Source: Actinomycetes bacterium
Lineage (GTDB): Bacteria; Actinomycetota; Acidimicrobiia; Acidimicrobiales; RAAP-2
DNA length: 64,000 bases
Direction: 5' to 3'
Assembly (NCBI GenBank): GCA_021827705.1
Contig: JAKAUQ010000018.1
Span: 21,927-85,926, forward strand
Under the pieces are notes generated by a model. That model was not told where the DNA came from. It was given only the letters and a program-made list of their open reading frames with translations, and did not search any database. Below, one piece after another: positions 6,791 through 12,200 of the stretch. Within the stretch, counting starts at the first letter, position 1. Each line of letters begins with the position of its first letter. Both the position numbers and the translations under genes were made by a program.

Positions 6791-7639
6791 ATGCGCATCG
6801 CCTCCGTGGCCGGCCGCGCTGTCGTCGTTCGCGACGATGGCTTCGTCGACGTCGCCCTCGCCTCCGAGGGGACGCTGCCGTCGGAGACGCTCGCCCTGGT
6901 AGCCCAGCTGGACCGGCTGACGTCGTGGTACCGCCCCGACGTCGCGCTCACCGAGCGCATCGCTCTGGCCGACCTGGCCCTCGACCCGCGCGTCGGTCCC
7001 GTCGTGGCGTCGCCGAGCCAGGTGTTCGCCATCGGGCTCAACTACCGGACCCACGCGCTGGAGATGGGGCTGGTCACCCCACCCAAGCCCATGGTCTTCA
7101 CGAAGTTCCCCTCGTGCCTCACCGGGGCGACCGCCTCGTTCCCCCTGCCCTCCGACGAGGTCGACTGGGAGGCCGAGCTGGTCGTCGTGATCGGCACCGG
7201 CGGGCGCGACCTCAGCGTCGAGCAGGCCCCGGGAGCCATCGCCGGGTACTGCGTGGGCCAGGACATCAGCAACCGGGCCCTGCAGCTGCTCGGGTCGCCG
7301 GCCCAGTTCTCGCTGGGCAAGTCCCACCGCCACTACGGGCCGGTGGGACCCTGGATCACGACGGCCGACGAGATCCCCGATCCCAACGACCTGGCGATCT
7401 CCTGCCGCGTCAATGACGTCTTGTACCAGGACGCCTCCACCAGCGACATGATCTTCACGGTCTTCCAGATCGTGGCCTATCTGTCGACGGTGTGCGAGCT
7501 GCACCCGGGCGACCTGATCTTCACGGGCAGCCCGGCCGGGGTGGGCCAGGGACACCGGCCCCCGATCTTCCTGCGCTCGGGCGACGTGGTGGCCACCACC
7601 ATCGAGCGGCTGGGCAGCCTGCGCAACGTCGCCGAGTAG
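6791..7639 (+). CDS. Fumarylacetoacetate hydrolase family protein
   Basis: AGGAG SD; IGLNYRTH, PMVFTK, VDWEAEL, FSLGKS, GDLIFTGSPAGVG. Confidence 0.9.
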   Translation: MRIASVAGRAVVVRDDGFVDVALASEGTLPSETLALVAQLDRLTSWYRPDVALTERIALADLALDPRVGPVVASPSQVFAIGLNYRTHALEMGLVTPPKPMVFTKFPSCLTGATASFPLPSDEVDWEAELVVVIGTGGRDLSVEQAPGAIAGYCVGQDISNRALQLLGSPAQFSLGKSHRHYGPVGPWITTADEIPDPNDLAISCRVNDVLYQDASTSDMIFTVFQIVAYLSTVCELHPGDLIFTGSPAGVGQGHRPPIFLRSGDVVATTIERLGSLRNVAE

Positions 7640-7819
7640 CTGACCCCGAGGCAGAGTGGTGGGGTAGTCACAAAACTCAGAGGCCTTGGTGCATCTGGGC
7701 TCTGGAGGGGCCTGAAACCGGCTGCTAACAGTAATACGCTGCTCCGCTAACAGGCTGAGAGTCTGATCAGAGAAACGCTTGAGCCATGGGAGGCATGTGG
7801 GAATGTGGGCGTAACCCAC

Positions 7820-7848
7820 TTGCCCGCCACGGTCTGAGTGGGTACAAT
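7820..7848 (+). promoter_or_regulatory. Sigma70-type promoter of the TA-like operon with overlapping inverted-repeat operator
   Basis: -35 TTGCCC (7820-7825), 17-bp spacer, -10 TACAAT (7843-7848); ACCCACT (7814-7820) and AGTGGGT (7837-7843) form an inverted repeat. Confidence 0.7.
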
Positions 7849-7868
7849 GCTCTTCAAGGGAGGAATCC

Positions 7869-8093
7869 ATGACTCGACACCTCACGACAGACGCCCGGAG
7901 CCGACTGGTCCTGGCGGGACACCCGAACGAGGATTGGCTCGTCGAAGAGCTCCCCGACGGCAGTTTCCGGGTAGAGCCAGCGAAGGTCGTCAGTGCCGCG
8001 CAGCACGAGTACAACACCACGCCCGAGTTGCAGGAACTGCTCTCTCGGGCAGCTGCGTCTGGCAGCGTTGGCCGCCGCCGCACTCGGGTGTAG
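7869..8093 (+). CDS. Small protein, putative AbrB/SpoVT-like antitoxin
   Basis: GGAGG SD; N-terminal TTDARSRLVL resembles the AbrB (T/L)D.RGR.T(L/I) signature; 74 aa, upstream of a toxin-sized ORF. Confidence 0.55.
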   Translation: MTRHLTTDARSRLVLAGHPNEDWLVEELPDGSFRVEPAKVVSAAQHEYNTTPELQELLSRAAASGSVGRRRTRV

Positions 8094-8096
8094 CCA

Positions 8097-8366
8097 GTGG
8101 CGGACGAGGAGCCGGGTTATTCAGCTGTTGCTGACGAACAGCTCGATGAACTCGAATCCTCCGGGGACCCCGACCTGTACAACGACCTTGTCGAGGCGTG
8201 TGAGTCGATCCTCGAAAATCCTGGCTGGGCGCGTGAGCGTTCGGCGGCGATTACCACGAGAGACGGCATCAGGTTCCGCTACGCGGTGCCCGGGAGGGTG
8301 CCCTACAAGGTCTTCTGGTCCAGTGATGGACCCCGAATAGAAGCGGTCTTCCCTTACCCCACGTAG
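8097..8366 (+). CDS. Small protein, putative RelE/ParE-fold toxin
   Basis: 89 aa, 3 bp after partner; pattern YSAVADEQLDEL (beta-helix), long helix ending ENPG, then YKVFWS...RIEAVFPY beta strands as in the RelE/ParE superfamily. Confidence 0.5.
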   Translation: MADEEPGYSAVADEQLDELESSGDPDLYNDLVEACESILENPGWARERSAAITTRDGIRFRYAVPGRVPYKVFWSSDGPRIEAVFPYPT

Positions 8367-8379
8367 TGAGCGCCAAGGG

Positions 8380-8574
8380 CTGAGACTGCCGGGGCTCTGC
8401 GTGGCCCTGGCCATCGCGAGCGCGAACCGCCGCCTGGCGATGTCGTTCAGCCCGGAGGGAGCGGCAGAGGCGCCGCGGCGGCGCCGGCCGGGACGACCGA
8501 CCCAGCATCGCAAGCTCACCTACCGCCAGGTGATCGAAGACGCGACGTCGTCGCGCGTACTGCTCACGACCTGA
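8380..8574 (+). pseudogene. Possible C-terminal remnant of a DDE transposase
   Basis: Frame reads LPGLCVALAIASANRRLAMSF...PRRRRPGRPTQHRKLTYRQV, similar to the hydrophobic helix-N-R plus Arg-rich tail at the end of some actinobacterial IS transposases; recognition from memory only. Confidence 0.25.
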
Positions 8575-8717
8575 CGCACCCCTGAACCTCACGCAGTCGA
8601 ACTACTGGCCCCTGCACGTCCGTGCGGGGGTCTCGTCGCGTGCGGCAACGAGTGCGAGGGCAGCTGACTACGACTGAGAGGTCGAGAGGGCGACGATCGA
8701 AGTCAGACGAGCTCTCG

Positions 8718-8750
8718 GTGGGCTCAAATCACGCAGTTCTGTGAGCCCAC
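8718..8750 (-). terminator. Hairpin downstream of tRNA-Pro
   Basis: GTGGGCTCA (8718-8726) and TGAGCCCAC (8742-8750), about 25 nt past the tRNA 3' end. Confidence 0.4.
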
Positions 8751-8775
8751 GACCCGGAGTTTCGTGACTTCCTCG

Positions 8776-8854
8776 TGGTCGGGCTGGGGAGATTCGAACT
8801 CCCGATCTCTCGGCCCCCAGCCGAGCGCTCTAGACCAAACTAAGCCACAGCCCG
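8776..8854 (-). tRNA. tRNA-Pro (GGG), CCA encoded
   Basis: Reverse complement folds as a cloverleaf: acceptor CGGGCTG/CAGCCCG, anticodon arm CTCGG-CTGGGGG-CCGAG, T-arm GGGAG-TTCGAAT-CTCCC, ACCA end; -10 TAGCAT at 8870-8865. Confidence 0.97.
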
Positions 8855-8893
8855 TGAGACGACCATGCTAGCCCACGGCTCTGGCGTCGCTCC

Positions 8894-9049
8894 TCACGGC
8901 GCCAGCCGGTGACCGCCGTGCGCCTGGTCGGGATGGGTGAGCCACGCGCGAGCCTCGCACAGGAACGCCAGCGTCTCGCCAGTCGCCTGGGCGCGAATGG
9001 CGTGGAGGATGCGCTCATCGAGAGCAGTGAGCAGATCGTCAACGGGCAT
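8894..9049 (-). CDS. Small hypothetical protein (51 aa), not in the ORF track
   Basis: AAGGAGG SD before ATG; MPVDDLLTALDERILHAIRAQATGETLAFLCEARAWLTHPDQAHGGHRLAP; fills the tRNA-gltB gap. Confidence 0.6.
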   Translation of the reverse strand: MPVDDLLTALDERILHAIRAQATGETLAFLCEARAWLTHPDQAHGGHRLAP

Positions 9050-9157
9050 GAGGCCTCCTTGCGTCGAAAAGCGGGCCGACGCCGCCCCCGATGGCCAACG
9101 GCACCGGCGGCGGCCAGCCCCTCGGGCCAGCGTACGCCGAGGGATGCGCCGGCCGAT

Positions 9158-9166
9158 TGTTATACT
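9158..9166 (+). promoter_or_regulatory. Extended -10 promoter of gltBD
   Basis: TG-T-TATACT about 48 nt upstream of the gltB GTG; small hairpin GTTGCC-N5-GGCAAC (9181-9197) in the leader. Confidence 0.5.
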
Positions 9167-9213
9167 CGGCGTGGGTCAGCGTTGCCCCGTTGGCAACGTG
9201 AAACGGGAGAGCC

Positions 9214-12200
9214 GTGCTGACCCTCTACGATCCCGCGTTCGAGCACGACGCGTGTGGCGTCGGGATGGTGGCCGACCTGACGGGCCAGGCGACCAACCAG
9301 ACGATCCGCGACGCCCTGACGATCCTGGAGAACCTCGAGCACCGCGGGGCCGCGGGGGCCGACCCGGCCTCGGGCGACGGGGCGGGCATCTTGCTCCAGA
9401 TCCCGCACGTCGCGGTGACCTCCTGGTTCGCCGATGTGCCCGCCCCCGGCGGCTACGGCATCGCCGCGTGGATGGTGAGCGGCACGCGCGCGGACCTGCG
9501 CGGAGCCGTCGATGACGCGGCGGCCCGCCTCGGCCTGGCCCGCGCCGGCGAGCGCCCGGTACCCGTCGACTCGACGCTGCTCGGCCCGACCTCGCGCTCC
9601 ACCGAGCCCCAGCAGGTCATGCACCTCTTGGTGCCCACCGGCGACCTGGCTGGCGACCGCCTGGAGCTGGCTCTCTTTCTCCTGCGTCGCCTAGTCGAGC
9701 GCAGCGGGGTCGCCTACGGCGTGTCGGCCTCCAGCCGCACGCTGGTCTACAAGGGCATGCTGACCGCCCCCCAGCTGCGCAGCTACTACCGCGACCTGGC
9801 TGACGACCAGTTGGCCTCGGCGGTCGCCGTTGTGCACAGCCGGTTCTCCACCAACACGCTGCCGCGCTGGGAGCAGGCCCACCCCTTCCACTTCATCGCC
9901 CACAACGGCGAGATCAACACCATCCGGGGCAACCGCAACTGGATGACCGCGCGCGAGTCCACCCTGGCGGTGCCCGGGTGGCCGGTTCCCCTCGAGGAGA
10001 TCACCCCACTCGTCACGCCCGGCCGCAGCGACTCGGCGACCTTCGACGAGGTCGTCGAGCTGCTGGTCCACGGTGGGCGGTCGCTGGCCCACGCCGTCCT
10101 CATGATGATCCCCGAGGCCTGGGAGCGCTCCACGACCATGGACGTGGCCAGGCGGGACTTCTACCGCTACCACGCCGCACTGATGGAGCCCTGGGACGGG
10201 CCGGCGTCGGTCACGTTCTGCGATGGCCGGGTGGTCGGCGCGGTCCTGGACCGCAACGGCCTGCGCCCCGCGCGCTACTGGGTCACCGACGACGACCGGG
10301 TGATCCTGGCCAGCGAGGTCGGCGCCTTGCCCGTGGACCCGGCGCACGTGCGGGCCAAGGGTCGCCTCCAGCCCGGACGCATCTTCCTGGTCGACCTGGT
10401 TGCCGGCCGCATCGTCGAGGACGCCGAGGTCAAAGACGCCTTGGCTCACCAGGCTCCCTACGGGCGCTGGCTGGACGACCAACAGGTCTCCTTGGACAGT
10501 GTCGAGCCCCGACCCATGCTCGAGCCGAGCTTCGCCTCGGTGCGCCGCCGCCAGCGCACCTTCGGCTACAGCGACGAGGACCTGCGCCTGATCCTGGCGC
10601 CCATGGCCGCCACGGGGGAGGAGTCGATCGGTTCCATGGGCTCGGACGCGGCCCTGGCCGTGCTGTCGCGACGCCCCCGCTCGATCTTCGACTACGTCAC
10701 CCAGCTCTTCGCCCAGGTGACCAACCCACCCCTCGACGCCATCCGTGAGGAGCTGGTGACCGCGACGCGGGTGACGATCGGGGGTGAGGAGAACCTCTTT
10801 GCCGCCGCACCCGAGCACGCCCACCAGATCGTGCTGGCCTCCCCGGTGCTGAGCAGCGAGGACTTCGCCAAGCTGCGCTACCTCGACGAGAGCGAGCGGG
10901 TTCACGGATTCACGCCCGTGGTGCTCGACGGGCTCTTCCCCGTCGACTCCGACGGGGTCCTAGGTCAGGTCCTGGCCGACGCCATCACGGCCGTCGCTGA
11001 CGCGGCCGTGCGCGCCGTGCGCGCCGGGGCCACGATCGTCATCTTGAGCGACCGGCCCACCTCGGCCACCCTGGCCCCGATCCCGAGCCTCCTGCTCGTC
11101 ACCGCGGTCCACCACCGCCTGGTGGCTGAGCACCTCCGCACCCGGGCCGCCCTGGTCGTGGAAGCCGGCGACGTGCGCGAGGTCCACCACGTGGCCGCGC
11201 TGCTCGGCTTCGGCGCCTCGGCGATCTGCCCGTACCTGGCCTACGAGTCCATCGACGCCCTGGTCGCCCAGGGCCTGCTCGGCTCGTCGACACCCTTCGA
11301 GGCTCGCTATCAGTACGCCAAGGCCCTGACCAAGGGTGTGGTCAAGATCATGTCCAAGATGGGCGTCAGCACCGTGGCCAGCTACCTGGGCTCCGAGCTC
11401 TTCGAGGTCGTCGGACTGGGCCCGCGCCTGGTGGCCCAGTTCTTCCCGAATCTGACGTCACGCATCGGCGGCGCCGAGCTGGACCGTATCGCCGGCGACG
11501 TGCGGCGCTGGCACCGCCGGGCGTACCGGGACGAGCCGCGGGTTGGGGATCCCCTGGAGAACCCGGGGGAGTACCAGTGGCGCCGTGACGGCGAGCTCCA
11601 CCTGTTCAGCCCGGCGACCGTCCAGAAGCTCCAGCACGCCACGCGCGAGGGACGCTACGACATCTTCCAGGAGTACTCGCGCCTCGTCGATGACCAGTCC
11701 GCCGGGCGCCTGACCCTGCGCTCCCTGCTGGAGCTGCGCCCCGCGGCCACGCCCGTGCCCCTAGACGAGGTGGAGAGCGAGGCCGCGATCATCGCGCGTT
11801 TCTCCACCGGGGCCATGTCCTACGGGTCCATCAGCGAGGAGGCGCACACCACTCTGGCGGTGGCCATGAACCGCCTGGGCGCGCGATCCAACACCGGCGA
11901 GGGCGGCGAGGACGAGCGACGCTACGAGGTGGCCGACCCGCGCGCCAACCGGCGCTCGGCGATCAAGCAGGTGGCGTCGGGACGCTTCGGAGTGACCAGC
12001 CGCTACCTGGTCAACGCCGACGACCTCCAGATCAAGATGGCTCAGGGGGCCAAGCCCGGCGAGGGCGGGCAGCTCCCGGGGGCCAAGGTCTATCCCTGGA
12101 TCGCCGAAGTGCGCCACTCGACACCCGGCGTTGGCCTCATCTCCCCGCCGCCCCACCACGACATCTACTCGATCGAGGACCTCAAGCAGCTCATCTACGA

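Follow-up and report, generated by a model that had tools for sequence, protein, structure and literature searches.

A divergent two-gene family of Actinomycetota with the features of a putative type II toxin-antitoxin module

The stretch analysed here, called the window, covers 64,000 nucleotides of contig JAKAUQ010000018.1 (positions 21,927 to 85,926, GenBank assembly GCA_021827705.1) from an Actinomycetes bacterium of the order Acidimicrobiales. It contains two small adjacent genes on the same strand, whose open reading frames (ORFs) are called ORF1 and ORF2 in the following. An earlier note made from the DNA letters only (the sequence-only reading) had described ORFs of 74 and 89 amino acids (aa), separated by 3 bp, with a strong Shine-Dalgarno sequence and their own promoter in an accessory islet, and had taken them for an AbrB-like antitoxin and a RelE/ParE-like toxin candidate. 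It turned out that the gene coordinates and the gap of 3 bp were right (Table 1). The Shine-Dalgarno sequence was found as well, and the sigma-70-like promoter TTGCCC-17-TACAAT (7820-7848) is the single such site in 7550-9250, for which shuffled sequences give 0.1. Compared with the closest relative, on the soil-metagenome contig L163, the ratio of nonsynonymous to synonymous substitution rates (dN/dS) is 0.10 for ORF1 and 0.13 for ORF2, so both are real, constrained genes under purifying selection. We read the pair as a type II toxin-antitoxin module with a probability of about 0.65, in which toxicity, neutralisation and DNA binding are putative. The generic traits of such modules are present, that is, small adjacent genes, often overlapping, with a patchy and mobile distribution.

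Table 1. Features of the gene pair and its surroundings in the window, with the elements of the two proteins given as residues (E, strand; H, helix)
Feature	Position	Strand	Details
Transferred cassette (upstream block, promoter/operator and both genes)	7661..8369	+	
Promoter and putative operator region	7796..7848	+	promoter scan, family consensus
TGGG-N4-TGGG	7798-7809	+	extra repeat upstream of -35
Inverted repeat GTGGG/CCCAC	7805-7819	+	just upstream of -35
-35 box TTGCCC	7820-7825	+	promoter scan
Outer right half-site TGGG	7839-7842	+	operator consensus
-10 box TACAAT	7843-7848	+	promoter scan
Shine-Dalgarno sequence GGGAGG of ORF1	7858-7863	+	5 nt before ATG; conserved in L163/L165
ORF1	7869-8093	+	ATG start, 74 aa; intact
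ORF2	8097-8366	+	GTG start, 89 aa; intact
tRNA-Pro(GGG)	8776-8854	-	3' end towards islet; context, outside the module
ORF1 N-terminal beta domain	residues 1-41		motif TDxRSRxVLxGH...DGS...P
ORF1 two helices	residues 43-63		
ORF1 Arg-rich tail	residues 64-74		
ORF2 model elements	E7-8, H10-22, H25-40, H42-48, E50-54, E57-63, E71-75, E80-85		AlphaFold2 (AF2)

The description as an accessory islet also held. Around the pair, the GC content is lower than in the flanks (61-64% vs 70-73%), and this stretch is bounded by a fumarylacetoacetate-hydrolase-like gene (its identity read from the translation alone) and the nearby tRNA-Pro(GGG) gene. In three other species of the genus the pair was not found. 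Between the window and the soil-metagenome contigs L163-L165, the cassette (61.4% GC vs 70.5% for the whole window) is the only common stretch, with 84% nucleotide identity, and the flanks are unrelated. The sharing being limited in this way, the mobile unit is about 709 bp long and consists of the upstream block, the promoter and the two genes. In one congener (G029), the place downstream of this tRNA-Pro is taken by another gene. Left-flank synteny with the congeners is not kept, as the hydrolase gene is on another contig in three of them (G029, G260 and G305), which prevented the demonstration of a clean empty site. When the surroundings of the islet were searched for att-like direct repeats and for terminal inverted repeats, short imperfect matches were all that appeared, and the Rfam search of 7500-9300 gave nothing besides the tRNA. 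The part of the cassette upstream of the promoter (7661-7800, about 140 nt) is conserved with L163 within the 84% block and contains a repeated GCTAACAG motif together with TGATCAG. No ORF and no Rfam match were found in these 140 nt, which are possibly a cassette boundary or an additional regulatory site.

To describe the family of the pair, we collected the relatives of both proteins. The relatives of ORF2 form more than 300 protein clusters at 90% identity, which are 60-91% identical to ORF2; nearly all of the named clusters are labelled “hypothetical”, and none contains a Pfam domain. An exhaustive profile search returned 128 clusters at 50% identity, so the ORF2 family is compact. The direct search with ORF1 at first gave just three relatives. 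Among about 85 loci scanned (L056 included), an ORF1 homolog stands directly upstream of ORF2 wherever that DNA is present, and the two genes overlap by 4 bp in most of the loci where both could be placed (55 of 72). More distant sister families of ORF2 have ORF1-like partners as well, which share the N-terminal motif and likewise end in a basic tail. On a metagenome contig (L205, 490-1240), a full-length ORF1 homolog with an Arg-rich tail (99.7%, E = 1e-26) is arranged head-to-head with a distant ORF2 relative. The linkage thus persists after the orientation is flipped, which argues for functional coupling of the two genes. There is no conserved third gene, and the neighbours vary by locus, including helicases, transposases and another toxin-antitoxin pair. 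In the literature, experimental work on this family was not found.

The protein P0189 reads as an apparent in-frame fusion of the antitoxin C-terminal half with the toxin. P0226 looks like an ORF2 homolog with a scrambled middle, perhaps through frameshifts, and could be a decayed copy. Besides, PemK/MazF toxin genes are situated within a few kb of the pair on a metagenome contig (L087, 8203-8466) and on plasmid pMYCSM03 (L170, 1171-1494), a proximity that suggests a clustering of toxin-antitoxin or defence genes.

For ORF2, the sequence-only reading had proposed the order of secondary structures of RelE/ParE, and the predicted structure agrees with this. The AF2 model, built with 47 homologs (predicted local distance difference test, pLDDT, 83; predicted template modelling score, pTM, 0.70), begins with a short strand, which is followed by three helices and four further strands, that is, the layout of the RelE/ParE superfamily with an N-terminal strand, a helical hairpin and an antiparallel sheet of 3-4 strands. 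When the model was compared with the Protein Data Bank (PDB) by Foldseek, about 45 of the 50 best matches were RelE, ParE, YoeB, RelK, HigB and YafQ toxins as read from their descriptions. The template modelling (TM) scores are 0.60-0.66 to RelK, YoeB and YafQ and 0.37-0.59 to ParE chains. Foldseek of the same model against viral structures was uninformative, the PDB sequence searches with three profiles gave nothing for either protein, and tblastn of ORF2 against phages gave no match.

We further compared profiles by hhalign, in which the comparison profiles were built from genuine family members in genomes of the same class or phylum. The broad ORF2 profile aligned with PF05016 in a sensible register (P = 1.4e-4, 52%), and the tight ORF2 family gave P = 0.0098. 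Distant ORF2 relatives match PF05016 over the full length and below the threshold (E = 0.002-0.02, 16-19 bits vs a cut-off of 23). With YoeB, the tight profile gave P = 0.27 and the broad one 0.038 (0.2-1.4%), as against 3.5e-8 in the control of PF05016 with YoeB. Membership of ORF2 in YoeB was rejected on the value of the tight profile, and the earlier statement that ORF2 lacks obvious canonical catalytic spacing agrees with these results. A register of ORF2 against the RelE/YoeB catalytic residues was not borne out by hhalign and is not used as evidence here.

The tight ORF2 family has its own set of conserved residues, among which S49, R61, K71 and E82 are invariant, R80 is nearly invariant, and Y or H is found at position 87, which is two residues short of the end. 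In the model, the conserved polar residues map to the strands or to their immediate neighbourhood. The unusual acidity noted earlier for the N-terminal half of ORF2 proved to be a property of the family: the median net charge is -9 for residues 1-44, where the acidic helical hairpin (residues 10-40) is located, and +2 for the C-terminal half. The median isoelectric point (pI) of the family is 4.5, compared with 9.8 for genuine PF05016 members of the same class.

Within the toxin-antitoxin reading, we graded the possible actions of ORF2. RNA cleavage is the foremost candidate at somewhat less than an even chance, since the compact size, the better superposition with YoeB and RelK, and the conserved basic and acidic strand residues favour an RNase. 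Action on another target is possible at a clearly lower level, ParE-like poisoning of gyrase is doubtful, and it is rather improbable that ORF2 is not toxic at all. The acidic charge argues against classical binding of ORF2 to the ribosomal A site.

Taken as a full alternative, the same module might contain a ParE-like ORF2 that acts as a poison of DNA gyrase, or of some other protein or DNA target, instead of cutting RNA. The best Foldseek E-value belongs to a ParE structure (6xrw_A), several ParE structures are among the matches, and the sole Pfam signal is PF05016, named “ParE_toxin”, a family which includes RelE-type RNases too. An acidic surface would be better suited to a protein target or to DNA mimicry than to RNA, and on plasmid pMyong1 the pair has a tyrosine recombinase on one side and ParB on the other, an arrangement similar to classic ParDE stabilisation cassettes. 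However, most ParE chains superpose less well with ORF2 than YoeB, RelK and YafQ do, and the conserved R, K and E residues of the strands point to a site for catalysis or RNA binding. ParE toxins require a C-terminal extension for activity, whereas ORF2 ends right after its last strand. We regard a ParE-like ORF2 as unlikely on this balance.

For ORF1, the claim of an AbrB-type N-terminus stood in part. The supporting part comes from hhalign, in which the N-terminal domain aligned with real PF04014 (AbrB/MazE) members at P = 7e-4 with a narrower profile, and at P = 7.6e-5 (62%, 33 columns, the domain spanned) after two sister-family sequences were added, compared with P = 0.07-0.68 for unrelated controls. 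This alignment has a deletion of 7 residues at the position of the AbrB helix. On the other side, ORF1 and 36 relatives had no match to PF04014 at E <= 10, and the Pfam, NCBIfam and PADLOC scans of ORF1 and its family alignment returned nothing significant. An AbrB/MazE-like N-terminus of ORF1 is therefore weakly to moderately supported by the profile comparison. The Phd/YefM family (PF02604), which was considered because of the order of secondary structures, was rejected (hhalign P = 0.13-0.16).

In the AF2 model of the ORF1 monomer (pLDDT 82, pTM 0.43), a first strand is followed by a long conserved loop, two more strands, a pair of helices and a tail that is disordered. The net charge is about -1 for the N-terminal domain, -4 for the helices and +5 for the tail, and the tail is thus complementary in charge to the ORF2 hairpin (-9). 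Together with the linkage that persists after inversion and the apparent fusion P0189, this complementarity gives indirect support to a putative growth-arresting toxin that the antitoxin would neutralise by direct binding.

For the ORF1 homologs, we made an alignment of 130 nt of upstream DNA. A CCCA-N3-TGGG palindrome within 80 nt upstream of the start was found in 32 of 39 loci, where 0.012 are expected per 80 nt. The family consensus is tCCCA.TTgCCCAT.gTGGGAAa.TGgG.TA...T, in which four CCCA/TGGG half-sites form an extended palindrome spanning the space from -35 to -10; the -35 box is inside the left arm and the -10 box follows immediately after the right arm. The promoter in the window retains the outer half-sites and the 17-nt spacer, with a diverged inner palindrome, and this variant is common to its nearest relatives. 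In about one third of the loci, the -10 box is about 6 nt before the start codon, and their mRNA is probably leaderless; the remaining loci have a leader of 16-32 nt with a Shine-Dalgarno sequence. Judged from its layout, the promoter looks as would be expected of an autorepressed toxin-antitoxin promoter, and the palindrome is a putative operator.

The finds of the pair are confined to Actinomycetota, and under 1% of the sampled genomes carry it. We scanned 185,579 species genomes and found 119 loci, of which 80 were kept, and all of these 80 are from Actinomycetota, including Acidimicrobiia, Mycobacterium, Actinomyces, Arachnia, Nitriliruptoraceae, Micrococcales, Nanopelagicales and Nocardioides. 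Among sampled genomes, the pair occurs in 2 of 201 from the order of the window and in 3 of 401 from the phylum. The genome of the window (1.78 Mb, 97% complete) has one copy, and some metagenome-assembled genomes (MAGs) have two. Six mycobacterial plasmids contain the pair, annotated as “hypothetical”, and a few loci adjoin tRNA genes. In the family tree, the members cluster broadly by class with some interleaving, and the window forms a long branch; the labels of the MAGs are too loose for this tree to prove transfer. Elsewhere in the genome of the window (G000), a Phd/YefM-type antitoxin gene was seen on contig C28 (64007-64204, E = 2.5e-19), while PF05016, PF04014 and YoeB had no match in this genome at the thresholds used.

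Relatives of ORF1 also exist in phages. All of the 36 ORF1 family members match phrog_19414, which is described as “antitoxin from a toxin-antitoxin system” (best E = 8.5e-7), and the family profile aligned with gp39 of Gordonia phage Haley23 (hhalign 97%, E = 7e-11). The earlier statement that the pair could not be assigned to a named family is right for ORF2, and ORF1 falls in phrog_19414. An ORF1-like gene was found in 61 phage records, of which 52 are from Gordonia phages and 9 from Mycobacterium phages, with M. abscessus strains as the listed hosts. In Haley23 (L220, MK875797, 1947-2719), gp38 (“hypothetical”) and gp39 (“antitoxin”) are arranged head-to-head between the integrase and the immunity repressor. 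The phage protein gp39 has no counterpart of the Arg-rich tail of ORF1. The resemblance of gp38 to the broad ORF2 family is weak (23%, P = 9e-4), and gp38 may be a remote ORF2 relative and the unannotated partner of gp39. For the linkage of the two families, Haley23 is a weaker case than L205.

The position of the phage gene, in the lysogeny control region, would also suit a non-toxic regulatory pair, in which ORF1 is a small repressor, ORF2 is a co-repressor or anti-repressor derived from a toxin that became inactive, and the pair would be retained for its regulation of mobile-element genes. The missing canonical RelE/YoeB catalytic motifs, an acidic charge that is unusual in a toxin, and the existence of head-to-head arrangements point in the same direction. 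Nevertheless, a conserved third gene or target regulon is absent, the neighbours being different from locus to locus, and the operator was seen at the pair's own promoter, the place that was searched for it. R61, K71, R80 and E82 are strictly conserved, the spread is sparse and patchy, and plasmids carry the pair, all of which fits a selfish addiction module, and we consider a purely regulatory role improbable.

We therefore return to the type II toxin-antitoxin module, for which the following mechanism is proposed. ORF1 would be both antitoxin and autorepressor: its AbrB/MazE-like beta domain, presumably dimeric, most likely binds the four-half-site CCCA/TGGG operator, by which the operon would be shut off, and its C-terminal helices and Arg-rich tail most likely wrap the acidic hairpin of ORF2 and neutralise the toxin in a complex. 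ORF2 would be a very divergent RelE/ParE-fold toxin carrying R61, K71, R80, E82 and Y/H87 on its beta-strands, and its activity is most likely RNA cleavage of the RelE/YoeB type at the site of these residues. Since ORF2 is strongly acidic, its target may differ from the RelE/YoeB kind. Degradation of ORF1, or loss of the cassette, would set ORF2 free to arrest growth. In this way plasmids, prophages and islets would be stabilised, and an infection by phage could be aborted. What the sequences show is the anatomy of the genes, their linkage and distribution, the resemblance in fold and the conserved operator, from which DNA binding, complex formation, toxicity and target are inferred.

The charges of the two proteins are opposite to the usual combination of acidic antitoxin and basic toxin, and this raises the question of reversed roles, in which the Arg-rich ORF1 is harmful (e.g. 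by nucleic-acid binding) and the acidic ORF2 neutralises it. A toxin with an AbrB fold does exist, namely SymE. Against such a reversal, ORF1 has a DNA-binding-type domain, is the upstream gene as antitoxins normally are, and is homologous to phage proteins annotated as antitoxin; the toxin fold belongs to ORF2, and the basic tail is missing in the phage homolog gp39. Reversed roles are thus very improbable.

A bolder version of the toxin-antitoxin module, which we consider rather unlikely, is that ORF2 represents a class of RelE/ParE-fold toxins with a new action. The acidic hairpin would engage a basic target or mimic nucleic acid instead of acting on the ribosomal A site or gyrase, the Arg-rich tail of the antitoxin would restrain it, and the pair might have a role in phage-host conflict, where the antitoxin-like copies of temperate Gordonia and Mycobacterium phages might serve defence or counter-defence.

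Several results weigh against the toxin-antitoxin reading as a whole. For ORF2 and 47 relatives, no significant match was found in Pfam, NCBIfam or PADLOC, and Foldseek gave no E-value below 0.001 for ORF2 (best 0.068). The motifs GKPE, EHR and RYHY of the retrieved YoeB members have no alignable counterpart in ORF2, and ORF2 is a fold outlier because the distance between PF05016 and YoeB is much smaller than that of ORF2 from either. An RNase that binds the ribosome would not typically have a pI as low as about 4.5. The head-to-head variants are without translational coupling, and the inner palindrome is missing from the window's own operator. On the antitoxin side, the ORF1 of the window itself reaches only E = 0.3 with phrog_19414, and the phage label “antitoxin” is an annotation only, for which no experiment was found in the literature. 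In Foldseek, the ORF1 monomer model gave noise only and no AbrB structure. This blank is unsurprising if the true fold is a swapped-hairpin dimer, because a monomer model was used.

If the toxicity of ORF2 is confirmed, a toxin-antitoxin family specific to Actinomycetota would be gained. As ORF2 is acidic, has no known catalytic motifs and is a fold outlier, its target could widen the known roles of the RelE/ParE fold. Non-tuberculous mycobacteria of clinical relevance (M. avium, M. intracellulare and M. paragordonae) have the pair on plasmids, and relatives occur in phages of Gordonia and M. abscessus. The current annotation is “hypothetical”, and with profiles of the two proteins, annotation pipelines could give a label to several hundred genes. 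With a putative operator of 27 bp and two small proteins, the pair is easily testable. The gain would be incremental and not a new principle.

Outside the module, two small ORFs were seen near the tRNA gene. Between ORF2 and the 3' end of the tRNA (8370-8775), the sole ORF is Arg-rich and 57 aa long (8401-8574); no recognisable integrase and no att-like direct repeat of the tRNA end were found in this interval. Another ORF of 51 aa (8894-9049, minus strand) lies between tRNA-Pro and a glutamate synthase gene, and its ATG is immediately preceded by a strong ribosome-binding site, GGAGG, as judged from the plus-strand sequence.

Finally, we compared the pair with known systems. E. coli PrlF-YhaV is the studied example of an AbrB-RelE-type pair, and the gene order and domain logic of this type resemble those proposed for our pair: a small protein, whose N-terminus binds DNA and is of the swapped-hairpin type and whose C-terminus binds the toxin, is encoded upstream of a toxin with the RelE/ParE fold. 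The difference is that neither protein here reaches a curated model, that the beta domain of ORF1 lacks the AbrB helix and the protein ends in an Arg-rich tail, and that ORF2 is strongly acidic without known catalytic motifs. In a survey, 27 AbrB/MazE-RelE neighbour pairs were counted and the combination was called under-represented (Makarova et al. 2009, PMC2701414).

The best superpositions of ORF2 are with the toxins of YefM-YoeB and M. tuberculosis RelJK (RelBE3; 6l8e, 2a6q, 3oei), which extend over the full length at TM 0.62-0.66 between proteins of similar size (84-89 aa). In contrast, ORF2 has no sequence-profile relation to YoeB, ORF1 is not Phd/YefM-like, and the pI of ORF2 (4.5) is far from the median of the RelE/ParE-type PF05016 members of the same class (9.8). 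ParD-ParE (PF05016; 6xrw, 8c26, 8c24) is represented by the only Pfam family with any signal for ORF2, and its plasmid-stabilisation context resembles that of the pair on pMyong1. However, the scores of the ORF2 relatives are below the curated cut-off and the TM to ParE is lower; ParD is an antitoxin of the ribbon-helix-helix type, unlike the one here. The phage family phrog_19414, e.g. Haley23 gp39, is homologous to ORF1 over the beta domain and the first helix, whereas the phage gene lacks the Arg-rich tail and is head-to-head with its probable partner gp38.

In conclusion, the pair family is real and unnamed, with its antitoxin side labelled in phage annotation and its toxin side not. It is distinguished by a putative toxin outside existing models, an acidic toxin combined with a basic antitoxin tail (the reverse of the usual), a truncated AbrB-like domain, a putative operator of four half-sites and head-to-head variants in phages.

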